A stretch of DNA of 64,000 bases, from the NCBI GenBank assembly GCA_963818475.1, contig CAWFSF010000006.1, positions 960,001 through 1,024,000 of the forward strand, in the 5' to 3' direction. Below, piece by piece: positions 6,250 to 21,858 of the stretch. Made by a program: the position numbers and the translations under genes. Numbering within the stretch: position 1 is the first letter of the stretch; each line of letters starts with the position of its first letter. This stretch comes from Nitrospirota bacterium. GTDB lineage: Bacteria > Nitrospirota > UBA9217. Below the pieces are notes generated by a model, which saw only the letters and a list, made by a program, of their open reading frames with translations, searched no databases and was not told the origin of the DNA.

Positions 6250-7642
6250 ATGAGCAAGGTTTGGTACAATTTTTTCGAATGCAATGCCGCTTCGCGAGAT
6301 ATCCTTAGAAAGGATGTCATTGAATATCTCGTGCAGTCGGGCATAGAGATGCTCGAACTTGATCATGATAATCAGTGTGGAATTGGACTTCTTTTTTTTC
6401 ATGAGTTCTCGGATCGGCTGTGTAAATTCATAGGAGATGTCAGCCGGAACGGCATCAGGAGGGTGCTCTGCGCTCGCTTATGCCCGGTCCGCGTTAGAGA
6501 GCGATAATCCCTGGAAATTGCTGCAAGCAGGCGTTTCCGATGTCATTGCTCTCGATTCCTCAGTCGATATCTCGGAAAAGATAAGCACGCGCCTTGAACG
6601 CTGGATCGCAGTAGAGCATCTGATCGATAGCCCCGCGGTCTGCGAATCCCTTATCGGACAAAGCCCGGCATGGCGGTCGGTATTGCGGCAAGTTGTTGAA
6701 GTCGCGCACTTTACCGATTCAGCGGTATTGATCACCGGGGAAACCGGAACCGGCAAGGAGCTTGCTGCGCGTCTGATCCACACCGTCGATCCCAGGAAGG
6801 ACAAGGGCGACCTCGTCATTCTTGACTGTACGACCATTGTCCCGGAATTGTCCGGCAGCGAGTTCTTCGGCCACGAACGCGGCGCCTTCACGGGCGCCGT
6901 CGCATCGCGCGACGGCGCCTTTGCGATGGCAAATAACGGGACATTGTTCCTTGATGAGGTGGGAGAGTTACCTCTTAAGCTGCAGGCGCAGTTGCTTCGG
7001 GTAGTGCAGGAAAAGACATTCAAGCGCGTTGGAGGGAATGCCTGGCATTCCACGAACTTCAGGCTCGTTTGTGCAACAAACAAGGACTTGACGAAGGAGG
7101 TTCAACGCGGTGAGTTCCGCAGCGACCTGTATTACCGAATCGCCAACTGGACCTGCACGCTGCCGCCGCTGCGGGACCGGAGCGAGGATATCCTTCCTCT
7201 GGCCCGTCATTTTATAAGCGAACTGACCACTGGGAAAGATATGCCCGAACTGGACAAACTCGTTCGTGAATGCCTGCTCGTGCGAACGTATCCCGGCAAT
7301 GTGAGGGACCTGAAACAGCTTATTTCCAGGATCATGTGCAGATATACGGGAAAGGGGATGATCACCGTGGGAGACATCCCCGAGGAAGAACGGCCGCATG
7401 GAGCGATCAGCTCTGCTACCTGGTGCGACGGCCAAATGGAAAATACCATCCGCCAGGCATTGCTCCAGAATGTAGGGCTGAGAGAGATCCGCGGCGTCGT
7501 GGAAAAAACCGCCATTGATATGGCCATCAATGAGGCTGACGGCAATCTGCAGCGCGCGGCCAAAAAACTGGGCGTGACCGATCGTGCGTTGCAGCTGAGG
7601 CGTGCAGCGGATCGCTCCCGACTGGAAACGGGGACAAACTGA
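6250..7642 (+). CDS. sigma54-dependent transcriptional activator (bEBP) with atypical N-terminal domain; frameshift near 6465
   Basis: ORFs 6250..6507 and 6437..7642; Walker A GETGTGKE, GAFTGA, LFLDEVGE, FRSDLYYR, YPGNVRDL, C-terminal Fis-type HTH. Confidence 0.92.
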
Positions 7643-7692: not shown

Positions 7693-8463
7693 TTATCGTT
7701 GGATACGCGCCGGATGTCTTGGGTGAGAACCTGCGATCAGACGCATGATATTGCCGCCGAGGACATTGTCTTCATCCGATCTCGACAATTTCAGTGCATA
7801 TATCTTCTCCATTTCAACTTCGGGATGGAGCCAGGGGCCGTCGGTTCCGAACAATATCTTATGTGGCCCGGCCTGATAAACTGCTGCTTTAAGCTGATCA
7901 AAGAACCTTACGCCTGACGTATCGGTAATAATATTCGGATATCTTGACAAAAGTTCAATGAACATTCTCTGCACTCTTGAATCGTCATTAAATGTCCCGA
8001 GATGGGGGATGATGAAGGTCACGTCCGGATACTCGGAGGCCAAAGTTGGAATGATGGCTACTTCTCCCATGATGTCATACAGCACGGGTAGCGACAGCGC
8101 CCGGGCAGTCTCGCAGACTTCTCTTGTTATGACGGCGTCACGGCGGTGAACCTTGATGCCGCAAAATCCGTATTCTACGACAGTTTCCTTTACCATCCGG
8201 TGTATTCTTCCCCTGTCGCGAAACGCATGAACGAATGCAAAGCCGTAGAATCGGACAGGATCCCGCGCAATAATGCCCGCGACCTTCCTGTTCGCGGTCT
8301 GATAGTCCGAATGGAAAGGCGAGAAGAGGATGGTTCGGGCGATGCCGGCTTCTGATGCGCGCTGCAGATACCGCTCAAGCGGCAAATTTAATTGTCCTGG
8401 ATCTGTAAAATCCGCTCCAGTGCCGGCATGGCAGTGGGAATCAATGATTAGTGTCGGTTCCAT
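7693..8463 (-). CDS. Amidohydrolase_2 family metallohydrolase
   Basis: IIDSHCH, GIKVH, IIPHLG, ILFGTDGPW, VLGGNIMRL. Confidence 0.9.
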   Translation of the reverse strand: MEPTLIIDSHCHAGTGADFTDPGQLNLPLERYLQRASEAGIARTILFSPFHSDYQTANRKVAGIIARDPVRFYGFAFVHAFRDRGRIHRMVKETVVEYGFCGIKVHRRDAVITREVCETARALSLPVLYDIMGEVAIIPTLASEYPDVTFIIPHLGTFNDDSRVQRMFIELLSRYPNIITDTSGVRFFDQLKAAVYQAGPHKILFGTDGPWLHPEVEMEKIYALKLSRSDEDNVLGGNIMRLIAGSHPRHPARIQR

Positions 8464-8819: not shown

Positions 8820-10592
8820 TCATGCGAGTATCTGCTTTGCGTGTGAGTACGAATTCCCGATCCTGCTTCCGTATTTTTCATACTGACCGAAGCCGTTGTA
8901 GTACTTGGCAAATTCCGGCCACTTATGCTCACGGAGATGTTTGATGAGATATCCTTTCTTCGGTGCTTTCTTTTGCTTGCAGAAGTCAAAGAAGCCGAGA
9001 ACATGAGCCCGTTCACTGGCCTGGAAGGCATCATACATCGCGCGCGGAGATGAGTATCCGATCAACCGATAGTTGGCAACCAATATCTGCGGGCCGCCGA
9101 TGCTTATACATCGTAAGGCAATATCTTCACCGGCAAGCCTTGACGCGAGGGATAGGACCCTATATTCGAGTGCTTGATTACCGTGAAATGCCTTGAACGC
9201 TTCGGTTACGTTTTCCCTGAACTGGTGATTATGCCAGCTCTTGCCTGACATCCCATTATGCCCCCAGTGCCGGAAATACTGATTGTAGGTATTCTGATTG
9301 GATTTCCCCCACAACTTATAGAATAAGTGGTTTTCAAATCTGATGATTGCCTTGCCAGTTGTATGGCTTCGGCCTCCGCTTTCGATCTGCCAAACCGCGA
9401 GAGCGGTCTCAGCTTCGATCCTAAGCTCGCTTGCCGCTGCCCGCATTAATCCCCCAAGGCGATTGTATGTTCTTGCCAGGCTTTTGCGGACTGAGGTCCA
9501 TTTCGGATTGATGGTTACCGAAGTACCGGGCTTTAAAGGCGAGGCCTTTAATCGAGAAGAATCTTTATAAAAAGAAGCTTGTTGGTTGCTCTGTTCTGAA
9601 TCCAGCTCTAAAAGCCCTGTATCTTCGAATTGCGAACCAGTCGCTTGATCTGCAAGCTCTTCCCAGGTTTCAGGTTCTTTGAAATCTTTATGGTCGGAGA
9701 ATTCCATGCCGGTGTATCCGGGGGTGATGCTGCTTTCCTGATCCTCAAAATATTCAAATGACTCGAAATCTTCAGACGACTCAGGGTAAGTCTCAAATTC
9801 CTTTGCAGTCGCCCTTGCCCGATTCCGCCAGGAATCCGGGATCGGGTTCCCGAGTCCTATCTTATATCCGAGTCCGCCGTCTTTCAGGCGTAGATTAGTA
9901 ACAGCCCAGTGGCCTACGTGATACCAGATGTCCGGCCCGGGACAATTCTCACGGGTACTGGCTGCCTGACGGTGAGCGAAGATGTGCGTCAGCCCGATCT
10001 TCTTTATAAGGTGTTTGACAAGGAAACGACCCGCCTCGATCTGCGCCTGTGACAGCTTGTGGCAGCCGTACTTGCCTGCCTCCCAGCATTTTCCCCTTAC
10101 ATTGGGAAAGTTTCCGGCAAATTCGACAGCCACGCTTTTTCGATTAAATCCATTCGATGCCCAGAGAAGGGCGGATACGGGATGCAGTTGGAGTATTCTG
10201 CCATTTGGCAGAATGGCATAATGCGCCGTAACTTGGTTATATCGATCAGGGTTGTTGCCCCGGCTGAATGCCATCTGATGCAACACCAAAGCCTTCACCG
10301 TGCTTGGATCACGGCGGCCTTTGCGCCTGTCTTTACGAGCGACATTCGTGCGGTCCTCTATCCGAAGCCCGCTCGTCCCGACGACTTCCTGCTCCGTATC
10401 CGGCAATTCAAGAACATCCAATTCGAAATTGTCTTCAAAGTCTTCCTGGTTCATTTTGGTGTCAGGCATTTCACTGTCTTCTGATTCGAATAAATCCTCA
10501 AAGTCTTTCTGATCATCATCGGCAAGCTCGAGCGTGTCTTCGGATTCTTCGTATTCAAAAGGCTCTTCTTCTATCTTCGGTCTATAACTCAT
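8820..10592 (-). CDS. Acidic-leader protein with N-acetylmuramoyl-L-alanine amidase (Amidase_2) and N-acetylmuramidase (DUF3380-like) domains
   Basis: Amidase motifs LVLHQ, AHYAI, VEFAG, FAHRQ, NCPG. Muramidase motifs QIESGG, IRFENHLF, SIGGPQIL..NY..GY, FAKYYNG. Two Glu/Asp-rich segments and no signal peptide. Confidence 0.85.
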   Translation of the reverse strand: MSYRPKIEEEPFEYEESEDTLELADDDQKDFEDLFESEDSEMPDTKMNQEDFEDNFELDVLELPDTEQEVVGTSGLRIEDRTNVARKDRRKGRRDPSTVKALVLHQMAFSRGNNPDRYNQVTAHYAILPNGRILQLHPVSALLWASNGFNRKSVAVEFAGNFPNVRGKCWEAGKYGCHKLSQAQIEAGRFLVKHLIKKIGLTHIFAHRQAASTRENCPGPDIWYHVGHWAVTNLRLKDGGLGYKIGLGNPIPDSWRNRARATAKEFETYPESSEDFESFEYFEDQESSITPGYTGMEFSDHKDFKEPETWEELADQATGSQFEDTGLLELDSEQSNQQASFYKDSSRLKASPLKPGTSVTINPKWTSVRKSLARTYNRLGGLMRAAASELRIEAETALAVWQIESGGRSHTTGKAIIRFENHLFYKLWGKSNQNTYNQYFRHWGHNGMSGKSWHNHQFRENVTEAFKAFHGNQALEYRVLSLASRLAGEDIALRCISIGGPQILVANYRLIGYSSPRAMYDAFQASERAHVLGFFDFCKQKKAPKKGYLIKHLREHKWPEFAKYYNGFGQYEKYGSRIGNSYSHAKQILA

Positions 10593-10599
10593 AAGCGGC

Positions 10600-10856
10600 C
10601 TCCCTGTTCATTGCGTACGAGAAAGTGCACATAGAGCGATATCTTGCTGCGGCCATTGCTCCGCAGCTTGTCCATCTAAACGGAATCCCATGATTTCCCG
10701 CCGGAACTACCTGATCGGTCTCGACAAGCTAGATGTCGGTATTTGGATCATCGATCCTGATGGAGGCCGCGCCTCCGCGTTCACCTGACTCACTTCCAGA
10801 ACAGCAGATGCAGAACTAAGCTTGCCCTCATTTGACGTGATAGAAATAGTAGCCAT
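10600..10856 (-). pseudogene. Degraded small gene remnant
   Basis: SD AGGAG and ATG10856 (MATISITSNEGK...). Coding-like text continues across frameshifts and stops (IRIDDPNTDI*LVETDQVVPAG). Confidence 0.3.
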
Positions 10857-10931
10857 CGTATTTCTCCTGTAAGTTGGTGTGGTTCGAAAAAATTCACTCC
10901 AACGCTATTTTTCTTACTCGCAAAGAGGTCT

Positions 10932-11921
10932 TCAATTAATTATTCGTTCGTAAAGCCCCGCAACTTGTTTCCCATTGCTACATTTCAGCCAAAGCCTTCT
11001 GACGAAGTGGATTTTCTGCCTTGTCCCCAGGTGAGTGACCGGGCTCGATCCCGCGGCTGGAAGCTTCCCCCCTAAGTGCACAGGATTCGAATCATTCAGT
11101 TTCACTACAAATTCGTAAGCTGGAAATAGATCCACATATCCAAGAAAACCAATATCAACGTAGTTGCGCGCTACTCGCTTGATAAAGAAGGTGCCCTCGT
11201 AATCGATTTTGGCGTTCAATAGAAACTGCCCGACTTTCTTAATAGTCTTTGATGTTGGACATGCCGGCCCTTGCGATCCTTTGACACGAATCATTATCTC
11301 CTTCGCCGGTGTGACGCCCAAAAACGAGAAATTCATCGGTGACGTAGACGAGGTTCCTCTACACAAAACGAGGCCAGTCATGCAATCAACTTGAATGGTA
11401 GGGTCAATGCGATGATTTTGATAGATGATGCGAGGCTTATCCAGGTCCATCTTTGTCTCAGAATGCATTCTTGATGACGCATTAATATCCGGGCTCAATG
11501 ATCGTTGATCGGTAAGACCGCAAAAAAATTGTGTGACGAACATAGTCTTTCCCGCCATGCTAGGGTCCAGCTTTACGATAGAGTCAGGAACCTTCCTGGT
11601 CAGGCCTGAAACATCTCTCGGAATGAATGCATTCAACCAAACTGTGACGGTGCGAATACGATTTTCGCATGTCGGCAGCGCATCAGTCACTTCATCGAGT
11701 GCAGACTCATATTCCCAATCTGAGGTTTCGGTGCCACGAAATAGCGACTCGTCTTGCAGTTGATCATCCGATTCAGAATCAAACGACCAGCTTTCCTCTT
11801 CGCCGTATTCTGGGAAGATGTCCTGTGTCTCCTCCGAGAATTCGTCGAACGACTCAAGCGTATCTTCGAACTCGAAGTTGGTCTCCAAGGGTTCGATGTC
11901 AAATTTATATACGTTTTTCAC
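10932..11921 (-). CDS. Acidic-leader protein with an unknown C-terminal domain (DUF3238-like, tentative)
   Basis: GGAGG 5 nt before GTG11921; leader YKFDIEPLETNFEFED; domain with WLNAFIP, TDQRS, SSRMHS, DLFPAYE. Confidence 0.75.
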   Translation of the reverse strand: MKNVYKFDIEPLETNFEFEDTLESFDEFSEETQDIFPEYGEEESWSFDSESDDQLQDESLFRGTETSDWEYESALDEVTDALPTCENRIRTVTVWLNAFIPRDVSGLTRKVPDSIVKLDPSMAGKTMFVTQFFCGLTDQRSLSPDINASSRMHSETKMDLDKPRIIYQNHRIDPTIQVDCMTGLVLCRGTSSTSPMNFSFLGVTPAKEIMIRVKGSQGPACPTSKTIKKVGQFLLNAKIDYEGTFFIKRVARNYVDIGFLGYVDLFPAYEFVVKLNDSNPVHLGGKLPAAGSSPVTHLGTRQKIHFVRRLWLKCSNGKQVAGLYERIIN

Positions 11922-12066
11922 ACCCACCTCCAAAATTTCGCTCAACTCATTCTTTTAGATGCCGCAGCGGTTTTCGTGCGTTACGGCCTTGCCGCCTGAT
12001 TCACCCTGCGAAAGTGAGGCGCGCACCACTCCTCGGGTTACGCCCGACCCCCTCTGTTCGAATAGT

Positions 12067-13605
12067 TCAGCGGGCCTTCTTCCCGACAGCCATCTCAAGC
12101 GCCCGAATCCCTTCAGCGCGGAGGTGGTCGACAAACGATCGAAAAGCATGACGTGTACCGTGGATTTGGATGGGACCTTCGGTGACCGGGTCTTTAACAT
12201 CGCGCAATCGAGCGAAGAGCCCATCGGCAATCCCCTGCTTAACCGTGACATCGACCTCCTGGTACGCGATCTCGCCCAACTGGCCCCACCGCCACTCGAG
12301 TGGTGATGCGCCACCTCCCCCGGGCAAGGGAACATTTGCGCCTGCTGAGCGATCTTCCTTGGGCACGAACCCCCTGGCAGCAAAAACAGGTGTTCCAAGA
12401 GCTTGCTTGACAGCATCAGTCCGCTGCGAAAGTGAGAGAGAACGACCTGCCAGCTTGCGGCCGACGCCCCGAACTCGCTCGAGGTCGCGAAGCGACGTGA
12501 TGACAGCGGCAGTCGCCATCATCTTGGTAGTGGATCCCGCGGCGCTTGTTCCGAGATGAGAGTCACCGACCGCGGTCCATCGGTAGCCGCCCTGAATTCT
12601 CTTCCCATCGTGATCCATGTCCGAGACGACGCGAAGGCCTCGGTTGTCTAGATTGTGCAACGCCAGGCTTACGATGTCGCCCAAGGAGAAAGTCCTTACC
12701 GCCTCCCCGCCGAGTTTTGAAGCGCGCTCCTTGATCTTCGCCTTGGTGAGCCACGACAACCACCATGCTAATGGAGGGAGCCGCTGACGCTCGTCCAGAC
12801 GGTCGTACATAAACTTGGCCATGTAACGGAGGAAGCGATCGGTCGAGTCGGGTATATGGCGCTCGTACCACTCTCGAATTGACGCGCGAGGCGTGCGTAC
12901 GTGGCCGGCAGCGAACATGTCTGTGAGGAAGTGATGGCCGAAAGCCTCCTTTGTCAGCGCTCTTCGCCACGCGCTCTGGCTAGCCTGCTCGCCGGCTTGA
13001 AGCGAATCGGCGATAGCTTTCGAATGCCATAAGACGTAGGCCTCCCAGGCACTGCCGCCAGCGGAGAAATGGGACAGGTTGCGGCTGGCGAGGACGTAGT
13101 ACCGCTCACGAACAGCGTCTTTGACCTTGTCTGGCACCTGCGGCTCCGGTACCTTTGGCTTGTGTCTCTTCAGATCGAGTGCCTGCCATCGGACCCAGGC
13201 GATCATGGCTCTCCCGGTTGGTGTGCGGGTGAGGTCCTGCATCTCGTCGTAGGTCCCGAAGTAGTCCCCCGCAAGGGCCACCACCTCTCCGAAGCTCAAG
13301 CGCTGGCCGCGTTCGCCGTAGACAATCGTTGTTGGTTCTCGACCCGAGGCCAAGTCACCAATGTCGCGATGCTCCGATCCGATGAAGTGTTGAACAGCAT
13401 CCGCTGGCTCTAGTGAGAGCTGAGAGGCCCCGTTCTCGAATCCCTCGTTGAGGCCCAGATCGAATAGCTCGTCAAGGAACTGCGCTTGGCCGGCCTCTTC
13501 CTCCCATTCCCAGTCGGCCAGCTCGGTATCAAACGTTTCGGACTCTTCATCGAATTCCGAATTAGTCTCAAACGGCTCAGACTCGATATTAAGCTCGTAC
13601 CTCAT
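12067..13605 (-). CDS. Acidic-leader zinc metallophospholipase C (Legionella PlcA/B/C and Pseudomonas fluorescens PLC-like)
   Basis: FIGSEH, LSFGEVVALAGDYF, NLSHF, FGHHFLTDMFAAGH (family signature pattern), HNLDN, W..VGD. Confidence 0.75.
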   Translation of the reverse strand: MRYELNIESEPFETNSEFDEESETFDTELADWEWEEEAGQAQFLDELFDLGLNEGFENGASQLSLEPADAVQHFIGSEHRDIGDLASGREPTTIVYGERGQRLSFGEVVALAGDYFGTYDEMQDLTRTPTGRAMIAWVRWQALDLKRHKPKVPEPQVPDKVKDAVRERYYVLASRNLSHFSAGGSAWEAYVLWHSKAIADSLQAGEQASQSAWRRALTKEAFGHHFLTDMFAAGHVRTPRASIREWYERHIPDSTDRFLRYMAKFMYDRLDERQRLPPLAWWLSWLTKAKIKERASKLGGEAVRTFSLGDIVSLALHNLDNRGLRVVSDMDHDGKRIQGGYRWTAVGDSHLGTSAAGSTTKMMATAAVITSLRDLERVRGVGRKLAGRSLSLSQRTDAVKQALGTPVFAARGFVPKEDRSAGANVPLPGGGGASPLEWRWGQLGEIAYQEVDVTVKQGIADGLFARLRDVKDPVTEGPIQIHGTRHAFRSFVDHLRAEGIRALEMAVGKKAR

Positions 13606-14701
13606 GACTTACCTCCAGGATTTTTGCCTTCGCGCTCCTGTTTCGTGCGATGCGCGCGAGCGCGTCCACCGCAAGGTCGATATCGCCTTGCCTGAGGAGT
13701 GCCGTAATGAGAAAACTGATGCGTGGGCGATGGCCATTGCGCCCGCGATGCAGTACCGTCCGAATCCCACATTGCAGCAGGCGGTCGTAAAGCGTTTCCG
13801 CGTCAAGCCCGGATGCAGGCACGAATGTCTGGACCGGGAACAAACCGCCGCTGGTTAAGAAACCGGCATGTGCCATGCGACTGCGGAAACGACGCACCAG
13901 ATGGGCGAGACGCAATCGCAGCTGGTCGCCATACTTCAGGTTTGCAACAAGAGCATGCTCAGCGGCATGGACAACTGCAAGGGAAGGCGGGCTGCAATGA
14001 ACCCTCGTTTCGCTCTTCTCTTCGAACCAGCCCACCATCCTGCTGCTTCCTGATAGGGCGGCTGCAGGAACGCCGAATCCCTTGGCCATCGAACTCGCCA
14101 TCAGCACATGAGGGTTCTGTGCGTTATTGCTCCACTGGAGTATGCCGCCGCCACCCATGCCATAGGGGGTTTTTTTTTCCGGCGAATGCCCCAATATCCC
14201 GAGTGATTGTGTGTCGTCCAGGATCAGCAGCCCGCCCGCGTCCCGGGCAAACGCCGCATATTCTGAAACAGGCGCGGGCTTTCCGCAGGCCGGACAAAAG
14301 CCGTCGGACAGGATCACCGGCCGCCTGCGGTGATTCGAATCATTTTTCATTACTGCCTTAAGGGCATCAGGGCGATAGTGAGCAAAAGTCCTGACGGGAA
14401 CACCGCGCGATGCGGCGCGTTCCACTCCCCACCGGGCGATCGGGTAAACACCCGCGTCCATGTAAATGGCGCTGTCATACTTGTCGAGAATGCCGAAAAG
14501 GTCCCAGAACAAATGCAGGGTGGAGGGAGCAAGTACTGCCCGCTCGCAACCCTGCAGCTCCGCCAATTTCCGGGCAATCGCGCGTGCTTCCCGGGGCTCT
14601 TGCAATGCCGCAGGGGCGCCAAACGTCAGCGTCTCCCACGGACGAAGGCTGCGGCTCGGGTGATGCATGCCGAGATAGAGCGCAGAACTGAAATCCATCA
14701 T
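13589..14701 (-). CDS. PLP-dependent class I/II aminotransferase fold (AONS/BioF-like)
   Basis: DFSSALYLG, LILDDTQSLG, SMAKGFG (PLP lysine); overlaps the next gene. Confidence 0.85.
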   Translation of the reverse strand: MMDFSSALYLGMHHPSRSLRPWETLTFGAPAALQEPREARAIARKLAELQGCERAVLAPSTLHLFWDLFGILDKYDSAIYMDAGVYPIARWGVERAASRGVPVRTFAHYRPDALKAVMKNDSNHRRRPVILSDGFCPACGKPAPVSEYAAFARDAGGLLILDDTQSLGILGHSPEKKTPYGMGGGGILQWSNNAQNPHVLMASSMAKGFGVPAAALSGSSRMVGWFEEKSETRVHCSPPSLAVVHAAEHALVANLKYGDQLRLRLAHLVRRFRSRMAHAGFLTSGGLFPVQTFVPASGLDAETLYDRLLQCGIRTVLHRGRNGHRPRISFLITALLRQGDIDLAVDALARIARNRSAKAKILEVSHEVRA

Positions 14702-14711
14702 GACGTGCTGC

Positions 14712-16193
14712 CTATCTGCGCTGCAACTGCATCTCCAAACGCCTGCTCAAATGGACCGACGGTTTAGTTGCATCCACCTTGCCGTTCACGACGGGATTAG
14801 CCAGGTCAACGCCAGTGGCGATCCGATAGGCGTGCGCATAGCTCTGGATCTCGCTTCTCCAGTACAGTGCCCAGTTCCTCGCTTCCTCGGCGTCGTTTAC
14901 GTTGTTCCAGTCGCCGTAACGGATGGACAGGAGTATCTGCTCGCCGAATACGCCCAGGTCGCTGAAATGCATGGCGGAGACATCCGTCCATCCCTGAATG
15001 GTCTTTAACGCGTCAACTGCGGACATCCAGCCTTCACGGTAGGGCATCATCGGTCTGCGGCCGAGGAACTCATGCATCTCAGGCCTCGACAGCAGCCATT
15101 GCTGCATCAGCATCTCCACGCGGGCCTGGAAAGGCAGGTCCCCAAACTGATTGTGTGCGCCCTCCGCAAGGAGCATATGCACTTCCTTAAGCGCGTTCAG
15201 GAGCGGGAACGGGTCCGGGACCATCAGCTTGTTGTTTTCTTCCTTGAAGAAGATCATGCATCTGTTTAGGAGGTTGTGAAACGCTTCGATGAACTTCGAG
15301 CGGCTGTCGGCGGTTTGCAATACCGGAACCGCCTTGCCTATGAGCGTAAGCCCGTACTCATGATCGTACTCATAGGCGCGGCGCTGCATGGACAGGCGGT
15401 TGTGCTCGTCTTGAATGTAACCCCAGAGCAGGTTGCTGAGAGGACGAAGCGGACTGAGCGTGAGGTTTGCCAGAGGGTCCCTGGACGACATCTTCTTGTT
15501 CTGGAACCGCAGGCTGATCGCATTGATCGCCTGGGCAAGCATTCCCTCTTCGTGCCAGTATGACCAGATCAACTCGATCATACACGGGTTATTCACCCGG
15601 TTATCGATGACAAGATTACTGTCGTCGCAAAAGATGCTTTTAAGGCCTGTCTGCAGATTTAAGTTGTTCAGAATTCTTTTGAGATAGGGAAGTTGAGGAT
15701 TGCCATCAAAGTATTGATCCACCAGGTTCTTCAGCTTGTCCATCAGGTCTGCTGGAGTATCTATCTCCCACCCGAGCCGCTTCTTTTCGTTCTCAAAATC
15801 GCCGTCAAGTCGCACGGTATCCAGTGCATTTGGCTGCTCTCTCGTGATGTCGATTCTTACGGAGGAGCACGCATACAGCATCAGGAAAAGCTCTGTTGCG
15901 GCCTTAAGTGAATCGTAAGAATGTACTCCTTTAAAGCACCTGTCCGTGTCACTTTTTTTATCAAGCCCTGCCTCGGTGATTTTTTTACTGATGTTCGCAT
16001 CGACATTCTCTTGTTTAAACTCCTGACATGCGGCTGACTCAGGAGCGGGCCTCTCAGGACATATGGCGCATTTTAAAAAATCTTGATAGTTACTAAAACT
16101 GATGGTTTTTGTCCGGAGTCTTATTGCAGTGTTCAGTGCTTGCCCGGGTGTTTCGTATCTTTTAGATTCAAGGCTAAAAATGTTGTCAGTCAT
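14712..16193 (-). CDS. Hypothetical protein (putative system core component)
   Basis: 493-aa ORF with SD AAGGAGG; helical, Trp-rich C-terminal half (IELIWSYWHEEGML, RRAYEYDHEYG); operonic spacing. Confidence 0.85.
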   Translation of the reverse strand: MTDNIFSLESKRYETPGQALNTAIRLRTKTISFSNYQDFLKCAICPERPAPESAACQEFKQENVDANISKKITEAGLDKKSDTDRCFKGVHSYDSLKAATELFLMLYACSSVRIDITREQPNALDTVRLDGDFENEKKRLGWEIDTPADLMDKLKNLVDQYFDGNPQLPYLKRILNNLNLQTGLKSIFCDDSNLVIDNRVNNPCMIELIWSYWHEEGMLAQAINAISLRFQNKKMSSRDPLANLTLSPLRPLSNLLWGYIQDEHNRLSMQRRAYEYDHEYGLTLIGKAVPVLQTADSRSKFIEAFHNLLNRCMIFFKEENNKLMVPDPFPLLNALKEVHMLLAEGAHNQFGDLPFQARVEMLMQQWLLSRPEMHEFLGRRPMMPYREGWMSAVDALKTIQGWTDVSAMHFSDLGVFGEQILLSIRYGDWNNVNDAEEARNWALYWRSEIQSYAHAYRIATGVDLANPVVNGKVDATKPSVHLSRRLEMQLQRR

Positions 16194-16208
16194 GACATCC
16201 TCCTTTTG

Positions 16209-17531
16209 CTATATTCCCGTTGAGTGTAGTTCTCTTAACGGCCGTTCACTCGACCGCTTCGAGCAGTTCGCTGAAGTATCGAGCGCGTTTTTCAGCGCCC
16301 ATTGTTTGAGCAACTCTGCCAGTATGCCGCTTTCCTTTTCCGGCGTTATCCTTCCATCACCCCGTGCCTGCCCGATTGCCGCGAAAACCAGGGACGGCTT
16401 CTCTGTCAGCATTTGTTCTGGTGAAGATCGCCATGACTCATAGAGTTCCTGCAACTGCTGAGGCCGGTGTTTACCGCACCTGAGTACTTCCATTACCGAG
16501 CTGCCGCGTAAAGACTTCGGCCTGTGGTTCACGAGCAATGTCACAAAACCCGGCATGGTGGAAAGCAGGCTCGAGATCGCCCGCCTCTTTTCCTCGGGAA
16601 GACCCGCAGCCGGATACAGGGTTTCCCATAGTTGAGATAGCCTTGCCCACTGCGGGTGAGGGTAAAGCGCATTCCCGATTGCGCAGCTAAGTTTCACGCG
16701 TATCCACGGAAACGGGTGCGGGTCATCGAGTGTGAACCTGAAAACAAAGGCGCGGGGGAGGCTGACCACGCTTATGAGTCCGAGCGTGGAAGCAATGCCT
16801 ATTTTCGCAATTGCCCAGAAGTCTGCAAGGATCTCGGAAATCCAGCGATCCCAGAGGCTCCAGGCGATGGCTTGATCGCCGCCGCTCTTCTGCAGACCCT
16901 GAAGTACCTCCCGTACGGACTTTACCAGGTCGAGCAGCGCTGAGCCCTGATGTCCTACCTCGTGTATCAGTGAAGAGGCGATCCCGCTGCCGACCATCCG
17001 CTCGCGGGGGACACGGATGACGGCAACAGGGTTTTGAGCGCCGCCCGGCAACCTCGTTCGTGCCCGCCGGATCGCCGCGCCGTGGCCCCGGTCAAGATAG
17101 CATACGACCGGAGGAGGCTCATAATAATGGCCTTCGATCCGGAGCGCGTCGGCTGAAACAACATCGAGGCCGGAAAGCCAGATCCCTGTTTCCTGTTCGC
17201 TCCGCTGATTCAGCACATCCGCAAAGATGTCGAATTGAGATAAGACATTATTGAATCTCATCCGCAGAATCGTGAATCTTCGCTGCGCTTCCGTCGCAGA
17301 AATACGCTCAACCCCGCCTTGTTCGAGCCAATGGTAGTAGCTGTGGATCATCTCCCGTAGCTGCGCATTTCCGGTCGCAATAGACTTTTCAATTGCATAG
17401 AGCGCGTTCGGTGAAATAGCCGCTGCCGGGACCATGGGCATGGTGAGAGAAAATGACCTCACCCTGTCCAGCCGCGCCAACAGCGCACGTGCTTCCTGCA
17501 AGAGGAAGGAATGAGCTACGCTGCCGTTCAT
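16209..17531 (-). CDS. HExxH gluzincin-like metallopeptidase or hypothetical protein
   Basis: LIHEVGHQ, downstream WISEILAD, DPHP; ATGA overlap with the upstream gene. Confidence 0.75.
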   Translation of the reverse strand: MNGSVAHSFLLQEARALLARLDRVRSFSLTMPMVPAAAISPNALYAIEKSIATGNAQLREMIHSYYHWLEQGGVERISATEAQRRFTILRMRFNNVLSQFDIFADVLNQRSEQETGIWLSGLDVVSADALRIEGHYYEPPPVVCYLDRGHGAAIRRARTRLPGGAQNPVAVIRVPRERMVGSGIASSLIHEVGHQGSALLDLVKSVREVLQGLQKSGGDQAIAWSLWDRWISEILADFWAIAKIGIASTLGLISVVSLPRAFVFRFTLDDPHPFPWIRVKLSCAIGNALYPHPQWARLSQLWETLYPAAGLPEEKRRAISSLLSTMPGFVTLLVNHRPKSLRGSSVMEVLRCGKHRPQQLQELYESWRSSPEQMLTEKPSLVFAAIGQARGDGRITPEKESGILAELLKQWALKNALDTSANCSKRSSERPLRELHSTGI

Positions 17532-18217
17532 GCATAGATACCATAGAGAATTATTTTATTGCCGCGGCGAAGCCATCGGCCGCTGCTCCGGGGGCGGCGC
17601 CCGCCTGCGCCCGAAGAACCATAGGGACGCTGCATTTTGCTGATCAGGCCTGGCGCGTGCCGCTTTGCGGCCTCAATTACCGCCGTTTTTGCAGCATTGA
17701 CCGGGGGCACCGAAGGCGACGCAGCGGCTGCGTTCTGGGCTGCAGAGCCGGCAAGGCGGACAACCCTGCGGGCAACTTCGAATTCTTGATCTTCCTGGCT
17801 CAGTCCCTCGAGTTCGAGGCCGAACATGCTCCCTGCCGACGATGCGAGCTTACTACCGATTGCAGTGCCGATGCCTGGCGCAACCATTGATCCGAGAGCG
17901 CCTCCGGCAATCGGAAGCGCTTTTTTGATAACGCCCTTGAGCATGCCTCCCAGGGGAGAAGCGACTCTTTTTATACCTCTTCCAATTTTCCTGAATACCC
18001 CTCCCAGAAACTGGTCGAGTTCCGCTTCGTCTGAAATTTCAAGAAGCTGAGAGGCCAGCTCCATCTCTTCGCCTTCACTGAATGGACTCTCCTGGTCGCC
18101 GACTTCGCCGGAGTCGAATTCAAAATCTTCGCCTTGCAACCCTTCTTCTGGATCAAACTCACCTTCGAAGCTTTCTTCAGGTTCAAATTCCGCCTGTGTA
18201 CGATCTAAATCGTGCAT
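17528..18217 (-). CDS. Acidic-leader glycine-zipper protein with a basic C-terminal GRWLRRGNKIILYG motif
   Basis: SD AAGGAGGAG before ATG18217; acidic N-terminus, amphipathic FLGGVFRKIGRGIKRV, AGGALG..PGIGTAIG glycine zipper. Confidence 0.85.
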   Translation of the reverse strand: MHDLDRTQAEFEPEESFEGEFDPEEGLQGEDFEFDSGEVGDQESPFSEGEEMELASQLLEISDEAELDQFLGGVFRKIGRGIKRVASPLGGMLKGVIKKALPIAGGALGSMVAPGIGTAIGSKLASSAGSMFGLELEGLSQEDQEFEVARRVVRLAGSAAQNAAAASPSVPPVNAAKTAVIEAAKRHAPGLISKMQRPYGSSGAGGRRPRSSGRWLRRGNKIILYGIYA

Positions 18218-18268: not shown

Positions 18269-18285
18269 AGCAAGATACATGCCGG
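18269..18285 (-). promoter_or_regulatory. sigma54 (-24/-12) promoter of the island operon
   Basis: Minus-strand CCGGCATGTATCTTGCT gives GG-N10-GC with TTGC, about 50 nt upstream of ATG18217. Confidence 0.75.
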
Positions 18286-18441: not shown

Positions 18442-18704
18442 CTCTCATAAAAAGTACAATCGATAGAAGCAATAAGGAGGTCCATCATGAAAAAACTCGT
18501 CCTGGTATTGCTCCTGATCCCTGCAGCCGGCTGGCGCGCCGGTCCATCATGGTGGATTCCATAATGAGTTGTCCGGGCTTAAAGCCAAAAAACGACATCA
18601 TCGCCGTCGGAGAACAGGTTCTTTATCTGCACCGATAACCGCGACTGGTCCTGCATCAGGGACGTGTTCGCTCCGGAGGTGCTCTTCGACATGACCTCCC
18701 CGGC
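18442..18704 (+). pseudogene. Degenerate 5' duplicate of the SnoaL/NTF2 gene at 21313
   Basis: Long near-identical blocks with 21252-21533 (e.g. ...GTGCTCTTCGACATGACCTCCC); frameshifted and truncated. Confidence 0.85.
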
Positions 18705-21169: not shown

Positions 21170-21312
21170 GCGGAATACTATACCATTAAATATAAGTTGC
21201 GACAATAAGGATATGGGATCCAGCATGATTCTCTGGACACGGAACCCTTCACTCTCACAAAAAGTAACAATCGATAGAGCTATGATAGAAACAATAAGGA
21301 GGTCTGTCTGTC

Positions 21313-21858
21313 ATGCAAAGACCCGTCCTGGTATTGCTCCTGATCCTTGCAGCCGGCTGCGCACCGGTCCATCACGGTCACAGTGGATTTCAAAATGAAT
21401 TGTCAAGGCTGAAAACCCAGAACGACATCATCGCCATTGGGAACAGGCTCTTTATCTGCACCGATAACCGCGACTGGTCCTGCGTCAGGGACGTGTTCGC
21501 TCCCGAGGTGCTCTTCGACATGACCTCCCTGGCAGGGGGCAAGCCCGAAACGAAAACGCCTCAGCAGATCGCTGACATGTGGGACGAGGGGTTGAAGGCC
21601 CTCAAGGCCATCCATCACCAGACAGGGAACTATCAGGTCACGATGGCCAACGGGAATGGGGCTAACCTGTTCTGCTACGGCATTGCCTATCATTACCTCC
21701 CGAATCCCACGAACCAGAATACCCGGGTCTTCGTCGGCAGTTACGATCTCCATCTCGTCAAATGGGACTGCGGCTGGAAGATCGACAGGTTCAAGTTCAA
21801 TTTGAAGTTCATTGACGGCAATAAGGACCTCGAAGGTTCGGCGAAAAAGGATTTGTAA
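21313..21858 (+). CDS. SnoaL/NTF2-like lipoprotein
   Basis: Lipobox LAAGC; D.RDW..F, HHQTGN, GSYD....WKI. Confidence 0.85.
   Translation: MQRPVLVLLLILAAGCAPVHHGHSGFQNELSRLKTQNDIIAIGNRLFICTDNRDWSCVRDVFAPEVLFDMTSLAGGKPETKTPQQIADMWDEGLKALKAIHHQTGNYQVTMANGNGANLFCYGIAYHYLPNPTNQNTRVFVGSYDLHLVKWDCGWKIDRFKFNLKFIDGNKDLEGSAKKDL

Follow-up and report, generated by a model that had tools for sequence, protein, structure and literature searches.

An acidic N-terminal leader shared by unrelated proteins is the tag of a widely scattered gene system with sigma-54 control elements

We analysed a stretch of 64,000 nucleotides (nt) from a Nitrospirota bacterium (GTDB lineage Bacteria; Nitrospirota; UBA9217; GenBank assembly GCA_963818475.1, contig CAWFSF010000006.1, positions 960,001 to 1,024,000 of the forward strand), called the window below. 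Seven tightly packed genes, designated A to G here, lie on its minus strand between positions 8820 and 18217 (Table 1). An earlier note on this DNA, made from the sequence alone, had pointed to an acidic, Phe-rich leader at the N-termini of four of their products. We found that this leader is the N-terminal tag of one widely scattered gene system, which appears to be controlled by sigma-54. The core of the system has six parts: one or more glycine-zipper proteins (A), a protein with an HExxH motif (B), a helical protein (C), a BioF-like protein (D), an amidohydrolase and a sigma-54 activator.

Of the seven proteins, Pfam assigns Amidase_2 and N-acetylmuramidase domains to G and gives D a weak match to an aminotransferase fold; A, B, C, E and F have no Pfam family. 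D scores far below the NCBIfam cut-offs for the BioF/Kbl families. G also matches PHROG endolysin and amidase families. Its internal leader-like tract sits between its two catalytic domains, and a comparable internal tract was found in an amidase-trypsin protein of another locus with the system (L019). The GTG start of F (11921) is preceded by a GGAGGTG ribosome-binding site.

Table 1. Genes and sequence elements of the system in the window (window coordinates; aa, amino acids; net charges of the leaders are followed by that of the remainder of the protein)
Feature	Position	Strand	Description
Gene A	17528..18217	-	229 aa; conserved core protein; MHDLDRT box, acidic/aromatic tract, glycine zipper
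Gene B	16209..17531	-	440 aa; putative zinc metallopeptidase; start overlaps stop of A
Gene C	14712..16193	-	493 aa; all-helical conserved protein
Gene D	13589..14701	-	370 aa; pyridoxal phosphate-dependent, BioF/Kbl (alpha-oxoamine synthase) type
Gene E	12067..13605	-	512 aa; leader and uncharacterised effector domain; start overlaps end of D
Gene F	10932..11921	-	329 aa, GTG start; leader and distant DUF3238-like domain
Gene G	8820..10592	-	590 aa; leader, Amidase_2 (97-220), acidic tract, N-acetylmuramidase PF11860 (395-584)
Leader of A	18002..18217	-	residues 1-72; net charge -26 (remainder +17); 27 Asp/Glu, 7 aromatic
Leader of E	13381..13605	-	residues 1-75; net charge -22 (remainder +14)
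Box 1 of E, IESEPFE	13567-13587	-	
DWEWE of E, within box 2	13501-13515	-	
Leader of F	11670..11921	-	residues 1-84; net charge -26 (remainder +14)
Box 1 of F, FDIEPLE	11883-11903	-	
DWEYE of F	11706-11720	-	
Leader of G	10365..10592	-	residues 1-76; net charge -26 (remainder +20)
Box 1 of G, IEEEPFE	10554-10574	-	
Internal leader-like tract of G	9588..9803	-	residues 264-335; 23 Asp/Glu, 11 aromatic, 3 Lys/Arg
Amidohydrolase_2 gene	7693..8463	-	conserved last gene of the operon (Pfam, synteny)
Sigma-54 enhancer-binding protein gene	6437..7642	+	AAA+ and Fis-type helix-turn-helix; convergent with the operon
Sigma-54-type promoter-like element	18269..18284	-	GG-N10-GC

The four N-termini are present as they had been quoted, on the minus strand, with starts at 13605 (E), 11921 (F), 10592 (G) and 18217 (A). 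The box ascribed to the first three occupies residues 7-13 of each of them and is indeed followed by an acidic aromatic tract. The leaders, whose lengths of 72-84 aa depend on the cut points that we chose, contain 23-30 Asp/Glu and 7-13 aromatic residues. DWE[WY]E occurs in two of them, as DWEWE at residue 31 of E and as DWEYE at residue 68 of F. According to Pfam and homologue searches, the mature domains behind the leaders are unrelated, as had been supposed. The N-termini of A, E, F and G have no hydrophobic run that could be a Sec or Tat signal, and are strongly acidic (net charge from -22 to -26); judging from their composition, the leaders are probably disordered. The fourth protein was only partly placed correctly: A does share the leader composition with the others, but it has a box of its own, MHD[IL]DRT, and is a conserved core component rather than variable cargo.

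The specificity of the leader was assessed on the whole genome assembly (4.66 Mb, 91% complete), which yields 36,660 six-frame open reading frames (ORFs) of at least 60 aa. The pattern [IFLV][ED]x[ED]P[FLIM]E has seven matches in these ORFs, of which E, F and G account for three, at their N-termini. Only five ORFs contain a stretch of 50 aa with at least 18 Asp/Glu, at least five Phe/Trp/Tyr and at most three Lys/Arg. Four of them are A, E, F and G; in the fifth, on another contig, the tract is internal to an ORF of 1108 aa. The earlier note had proposed motif models as a check, and these performed unevenly, ranking E high but not recovering F and G. A position-specific scoring matrix (PSSM) built from 16 leaders of other loci placed E fourth among 82,844 candidate starts and F and G outside the top 15. 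A PSSM of the box, applied to all positions, placed E approximately ninth of 4.5 million. A small hidden Markov model of the 16 leaders reported E with an E-value of 8.1 and did not report F or G. These ranks show that the short box alone is only moderately specific. Specificity comes from the combination of the box, its N-terminal position and the acidic tract.

To place the leader in its genomic context we compared the best 80 of 228 stretches that encode a relative of B, taking one genome per species and flanks of up to 10 kb. By our reading of the record names, these loci belong to Pseudomonadota, Planctomycetota, Verrucomicrobiota, Chloroflexota, Acidobacteriota, Nitrospirota, Methylomirabilota, Myxococcota, Desulfobacterota, Bacteroidota, Actinomycetota, a metagenome-assembled genome (MAG) of Clostridia, and others. 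Blastp with the window proteins found A in 74 loci, B in 80, C in 78 and D in 60, with the gene order kept; G-like proteins were found in five loci, E and F in none. A is often present in two copies per locus. Among the 53 loci with at least 7 kb of sequence after B, 44 have the amidohydrolase and 46 the sigma-54 activator, which is mostly on the opposite strand and convergent, as in the window. All-against-all clustering of the locus ORFs gave no conserved families other than A-D, the amidohydrolase, the activator, the cargo families and M20 peptidases.

The activator of the window matches Sigma54_activat with an E-value of 7e-59, has an HTH_8 domain, and carries only about 70 aa N-terminal to its AAA+ domain. 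The promoter motif GGCA[CT]-N5-T[TC]GC was found upstream of A in 40 of the 80 loci. Its density there is 0.29 per kb, compared with 0.046 per kb in all locus DNA, i.e., approximately six times higher. The corresponding element of the window, cGGCAtgtatcTTGCt, lies about 52 nt before the start of A and has two mismatches to TGGCAC-N5-TTGCW. This single match is not significant by itself (21 such matches were found in the window and 32 were expected). The motifs and the conserved activator gene indicate that the operon has sigma-54 control elements.

The system is spread across soil and water bacteria of many phyla. B has relatives in more than 5,699 database clusters at E-values of at most 0.001, in a search limited to 8,000 candidates. 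The 119 listed matches besides the window protein are 60-87% identical to it; a source name is given for 33 of these, and in each case it is "hypothetical protein". Within the phylum of the window B occurs in eight of 401 genomes, and in none of the 63 genomes of the same family other than this one; as a single-protein query B gave one weak match among 40 relatives. The distribution is thus patchy, and looks like the result of horizontal spread. The system was also found on megaplasmids of Ensifer, Rhizobium and Paraburkholderia phymatum, and its culturable carriers include Massilia, Cupriavidus, Methylocapsa, Bradyrhizobium and Paraburkholderia phymatum. No relatives of B were found in 2.9 million viral contigs. 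One homologue of B from the same phylum (G209:C148:5529-6677) has an in-frame TGA and may be a broken copy.

Variable genes, which in the window are E, F and G, occupy the space from D to the amidohydrolase gene. A Pfam scan of this cargo zone covered 81 ORFs, of which 65 had a match. The families are PG_binding_1 (34 ORFs), OmpA (9), trypsin-like (8), DUF2272 (6), VanY (5), Peptidase_M23 and Amidase_2 (4 each), Peptidase_M74 (3), M15, CHAP and Extensin-like_C (2 each), and Muramidase, Glucosaminidase and Phospholipase D (1 each). Two further ORFs encode APOBEC-like deaminases without a visible leader, and six encode M20 peptidases, which also have no leader and look like a further accessory gene. 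Judging from these families, the variable genes mostly encode putative peptidoglycan hydrolases or binders. The two deaminases are in Bacteroidota loci (L079:14479-15570 and L082:14460-15584), where they follow D. In the cargo zone of Massilia (L062:14504-15793, L024:14610) we observed a small protein that combines a short F-E-M/V leader with a Gly/Arg/Pro-rich linker and what we take to be a GIY-YIG motif. It is followed by a third paralogue of A, so that the A family acts as cargo there too.

The N-termini of cargo-zone proteins in different loci repeat a common pattern, M-x(3-6)-hydrophobic-x-hydrophobic-E-x-E-P-F/L, which we designate box 1. In other phyla it heads unrelated cargo, namely trypsin-like, M23, VanY, Amidase_2, OmpA and PG_binding proteins. 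In the leaders of variable genes box 1 is followed by the acidic, aromatic, low-complexity tract, often by a second box, and then by a basic linker or a cationic enzyme. The second box, E-L-A-x-x-x-W-E-x-E (box 2), includes DWE[WY]E and closes the acidic tract; behind it comes an Arg/Pro-rich basic linker or a PG-binding domain. Box 2 is present in eight of 111 cargo-zone ORFs and in two of 3821 other ORFs. The tract itself is highly variable in length and sequence, and is sometimes repetitive.

We counted an N-terminus as leader-like if 35 residues near the start codon included at least 10 Asp/Glu, at least four aromatic residues and at most three Lys/Arg. Such N-termini were found in 76 of 131 ORFs of the A family and 20 of 111 cargo-zone ORFs, as well as in one of 218 B, C or D ORFs and one of 2675 other locus ORFs. 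The ORF sets include spurious frames, so these fractions are lower bounds for real genes. An alignment search with the leader against five other genomes that carry the system found nothing; it had no positive control.

These counts bear on another explanation, by which the acidic tracts are low-complexity linkers or solubility tails that have no specific partner, and the box was inherited from a common ancestral gene. The great variability and occasional repetitiveness of the tract, the presence of a similar tract between the two domains of G, and the modest statistics of the short box would all suit this explanation. We nevertheless regard it as improbable. Across many phyla box 1 keeps its place at the N-terminus although the mature domains behind it are not homologous, leader-like N-termini are essentially confined to the system, and box 2 is conserved too. 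In addition, common descent fails to explain the same tag on unrelated enzymes whose homologues are without it.

One side observation concerns the C-terminal motif of A (positions 17531-17590 of the window). In the form G-R-W-x-R-R-G-x-x-I-V-L-x-G it recurs near the N-terminus of some downstream ORFs in Thermoanaerobaculia and a betaproteobacterial MAG (L039:14024, L050:7527 and L003:18993), where it seems to stand in for box 1. It may be a second docking element.

The domains of E and F could be followed beyond the system. The query for E (residues 75-512) gave 160 relatives at E-values of at most 0.001, of which the best 120 were examined. According to precomputed Pfam annotation, 35 of the 120 carry PF13699 (DUF4157/eCIS_core, where eCIS stands for extracellular contractile injection system), three carry PG_binding_1 and one carries DUF2272. 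A regular expression found a box 1 start in 14 and an acidic N-terminus without box 1 in 11. The query for F (residues 85-329) gave 51 relatives: nine with PF11579 (DUF3238), five with PF13699, two with OmpA and five with a box 1 start, and many that are the bare domain. Atlas searches with the F domain returned clusters of eukaryotic ribosome-biogenesis proteins at 0.87-0.89, which we judged to be chance matches. Elsewhere the domains of E and F stand behind DUF4157, behind other N-termini or by themselves, which makes the leader a swappable module. The modularity suggested by the earlier note was thus borne out, the leader heading different enzymes beside the same core in many phyla. Among the homologues of the F domain (P0243-P0252), other short tags recur, namely M-Y-[IVL]-[QH]-T-S-[EQ]-G-L-G-Q and M-S-Y-L-Y-x-R. 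This is a hint that the DUF3238-like domain has further tag families for other systems.

The link to DUF4157 raises the question of whether the leader serves to load cargo into a particle that is encoded elsewhere, such as an eCIS, an encapsulin or a vesicle. PMC8213781 presents DUF4157 as a core or marker domain of eCIS that stands N-terminally in toxins associated with eCIS and has an unknown role. According to two other sources (bioRxiv 10.64898/2026.05.27.728243 and PMC11495950), the cargo of an eCIS has at its N-terminus a disordered loading sequence of 50-70 aa that is specific to the system, and loading does not require DUF4157. The leaders described here resemble these signals (PVC Pnf/Pdp1, AlgoCIS Cgo1/2) in that a low-complexity leader of 72-84 aa stands on unrelated effectors and is in principle transferable; the fusion of E and F effector domains to DUF4157 elsewhere is a further likeness. 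They differ in their sharp seven-residue box and strong acidic and aromatic bias, and in being linked to A-D, and the loci have neither a baseplate nor a loader ATPase as a conserved feature. The only conserved AAA+ protein of the loci is the sigma-54 activator, though no specific Pvc15 profile was run for a Pvc15/Alg15-like loader.

The genome of the window, at 91% completeness, yielded no Phage_sheath_1, no VipB and no encapsulin (Linocin_M18, PF04454); the controls for these searches were positive, in the case of encapsulin in three genomes. Neither gp19 tube nor DUF4157 was found in it, in searches whose controls were silent. Because no sheath, tube or DUF4157 was found, the leader is not an eCIS signal here. 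The analogy with eCIS loading, and likewise that with encapsulin peptides, therefore does not extend to membership of such a system. Sheath genes are present in only two of the five other system-carrying genomes, and no particle genes are conserved within 10 kb in the 80 loci, where the leader is strictly tied to A-D instead. We therefore consider loading into a particle encoded elsewhere very improbable.

Protein A is conserved from end to end. Its M-H-D-I/L-D-R-T box is followed by a variable acidic/aromatic tract, an amphipathic helix EEMELAxELLEVxDEAELDQFLG, a basic stretch, a glycine zipper (approximately residues 100-133), a helical region and a C-terminal SGRWxRRGxKIVLxG. In the window the helix reads EEMELAxxLLEIxDEAELDQFLG and the C-terminal motif is SGRWLRRGNKIILYG. 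This conservation and the presence of A in 74 of 80 loci show that the fourth "leader" belongs to a core protein and not to cargo. A has no Pfam or NCBIfam family. A profile search of the PDB matched designed helical repeats only, and PHROG gave weak matches to tape-measure proteins (E-value 4e-4).

The outline of A, an acidic leader before a Gly-rich region, is like that of bacteriocin precursors, and the core includes conserved enzymes that have no assigned role (C, D, the amidohydrolase and sometimes M20). The leader might thus be a recognition leader in the style of ribosomally synthesized and post-translationally modified peptides (RiPPs), by which C, D or the amidohydrolase would be guided to modify A, and perhaps the cargo, ahead of release by proteolysis. 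Against this, the tagged proteins are 229-590 aa long and mostly folded enzymes rather than short precursors, and Pfam and NCBIfam found no recognition element, radical-SAM, cyclodehydratase, LanC-like or C39-transporter family in the core. The RiPP analogy drawn by the earlier note does not hold as membership, and we see very little chance that the leader works in this way.

In B the HEVGHQ motif (residues 190-195, nt 16950-16964) is invariant among 37 sequences, and so are E233 and D237; a loop rich in Arg, GAAIRRARTRLPGG, is invariant or nearly so. The structural model of B is confident (pLDDT, the predicted local distance difference test score, 87; predicted template modelling score, pTM, 0.87). 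It places two strands before the HExxH helix and puts E233 and D237 on the helix that follows. B thus has the zincin feature of HExxH on a helix with a downstream candidate third ligand; E233 is the probable metal ligand. The net charge of B is +10 overall. A relationship between B and DUF4157 was considered and rejected: hhalign against 34 DUF4157-like segments aligned seven columns at HExxH with a probability of 3.7%, and Pfam was negative.

The model of C is all-helical (pTM 0.84) and has no structural neighbour: the best VIA Z-score is 4.9, with none of 48,161 chains at 5 or above, and Foldseek reported nothing at E-values of at most 0.001. C has no Pfam or NCBIfam family, and sequence and profile searches of the PDB were uninformative. 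Neither B nor C has predicted membrane segments or signal peptides. Most homologues of C (L003, L006, L008, L010, L022 and others) have 120-250 extra N-terminal residues that are missing in the window protein; these residues look like a beta-sandwich, either Ig-like or carboxypeptidase-regulatory-like.

In the reading that we favour, to which we assign a probability of about 0.45, the leader is an anionic pro-region and at the same time a recognition tag for the core, with B as the likely leader peptidase and A as a membrane-active partner. The leader would keep cationic, envelope-active effectors soluble and harmless in the cytoplasm of the producer cell and would mark them for the core; B would then cleave it off. 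A, which has an acidic pro-region of its own, may be membrane-active, either opening an exit in the manner of a holin or being the main toxin itself. The target would be the wall of the producer itself, which amounts to regulated lysis, or neighbouring cells. B is a candidate leader peptidase because of the invariant HEVGHQ, E233 and D237, its confident model, and the overlap of the stop of A with the start of B. The charges are complementary (leaders from -22 to -26, mature parts from +14 to +20, and B at +10 with its Arg loop), and this supports the reading as well. A predicted complex of B, C and the leader of E scored 0.00 and 0.01 against a mark of 0.32; we took this as no answer and did not use it either way.

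Several observations weigh against this reading. No conserved cleavage-site motif was found at the leader end, and no immunity genes were seen. The roles of C, D and the amidohydrolase are left unexplained by it. HExxH by itself is no proof of a protease, and B has no match in Pfam, NCBIfam or the PDB (by sequence or profile), nor does its model have a Foldseek match at E-values of at most 0.001. VIA matched only a generic helical bundle with residues 1-108 of B, outside the catalytic part, and the nearest Atlas clusters with a named family, M48/U49, score only 0.77. In A the most hydrophobic stretch of 19 residues has a Kyte-Doolittle mean of only 1.32, and the sequence therefore gives no evident sign of a transmembrane pore. 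Many cargo proteins elsewhere have box 1 with little or no acidic tract, and thus charge masking is not the whole story.

More broadly, the box and the polyanionic tract might be the address label of a new, self-contained release or delivery pathway, made up of B, C and A, that brings folded enzymes attacking walls and membranes from the cytoplasm to their target, serves bacteria with one or two membranes and is independent of Sec, Tat, type VI secretion and contractile particles. We hold this to be possible, though doubtful. The leader could also be chiefly an export signal, with inhibition being incidental. The core would then form a new secretion route, with A placed in the membrane, B serving as its signal peptidase and C as its receptor or chaperone, that moves folded wall-degrading enzymes out of the cytoplasm without lysis. 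That box 1 is fixed at the N-terminal end of unrelated cargo proteins across many phyla is what one would expect of such a signal, and the cargo acts on peptidoglycan or membranes and yet has no Sec-type signals. The leader is also interchangeable with DUF4157, a trafficking-associated eCIS marker, and many box 1 proteins do without the long acidic tract. However, the conserved locus families include no ATPase, channel or outer-membrane component, and B and C are without predicted membrane segments or signal peptides. Moreover, the system is carried by diderm as well as monoderm-type phyla, and an envelope-spanning machine would need to suit both. We consider an export signal rather unlikely.

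The steps of our favoured reading would also serve regulated suicide, in the form of abortive infection or altruistic lysis. In this case a trigger would let B remove an inhibitory leader, freeing A and the hydrolases; the mechanism overlaps and the role differs. Bacterial gasdermins, which are activated by proteases, offer a comparison. A protease-like gene does stand beside pro-forms of envelope-damaging proteins, and the lack of visible immunity genes, an effector set as variable as in conflict systems, and the patchy, horizontally spread-looking occurrence of B (8/401 genomes of the phylum) all suit such a role. Conversely, none of the proteins A-G matches any of 5027 PADLOC defence models, the window neighbours are not defence genes according to Pfam, and B was not found in viral contigs. 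The operon also appears to be controlled by a dedicated sigma-54 activator, and transcriptional control of this kind is unusual for known abortive-infection systems. Suicide as the main role is therefore unlikely in our opinion.

The favoured reading has several known parallels. In zymogens, bacteriocin precursors and bacterial gasdermins, cationic proteins that act on membranes or walls are masked by anionic propeptides, which a dedicated protease takes off. The likeness lies in the negative leader before a positive part and in the protease-like gene in the operon. Here, in contrast, one leader serves many enzymes and the candidate protease is of no known family; in addition, no C39-peptidase transporter and no Gly-Gly site were seen. 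Holin-endolysin lysis cassettes and holin/muramidase-dependent ("type 10") secretion resemble the system in placing signal-less hydrolases of endolysin type beside a small, glycine-rich and possibly membrane-active protein, A. However, A cannot be recognised as a holin, having no strong transmembrane segment, and the search of viral contigs did not find the system. Its hydrolases share a leader, which endolysins do not, and it has the extra conserved B, C, D, amidohydrolase and sigma-54 control. The motifs MIX, FIX and RIX are N-terminal markers of type VI effectors, and like them box 1 is a short conserved N-terminal motif that marks polymorphic effectors with diverse C-terminal toxic domains. 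Its sequence is different, no VipB was found in the genome, and carriers of the system include Chloroflexota, Actinomycetota and a Clostridia MAG, in which one would not expect type VI secretion.

No paper that describes the operon, the boxes or DUF3238 turned up in full-text literature searches; tables of eCIS-associated or polymorphic-toxin domains in the supplements of DUF4157 papers may list the effector domains. To judge from these and the other negative searches, the machinery matches no known secretion, packaging, defence or RiPP system and appears to be new at the system level. As an idea, tagging polymorphic effectors at the N-terminus is already known. If the leader routes or gates cargo, the system would be a new bacterial way to deploy peptidoglycan hydrolases without export signals and would link toxin domains of contractile injection systems with a second, unrelated deployment system. 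It would also supply a simple sequence rule for finding effectors, including the uncharacterised domains of E and F, and possibly a portable tag that holds lytic enzymes inert until they are wanted.

The base composition of the operon is uneven. The GC content is 0.455-0.473 over gene F (10800-12000) and approximately 0.50-0.52 over G, compared with 0.58-0.61 over D, E and the 3' part of C (12000-15000). The lower GC content of the cargo genes F and G relative to the core fits separate acquisition of this cargo.

The edge of the operon carries a duplication. The first approximately 230 nt of a lipoprotein-like gene (21313-21858) are present twice, at 18480-18704 and at 21306-21533, with 89-96% identity. 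The copy at 18480-18704 lies immediately upstream of the promoter region of A, and the two copies flank genes for GGDEF and phosphonate-binding proteins. This duplication may be the scar of a rearrangement.

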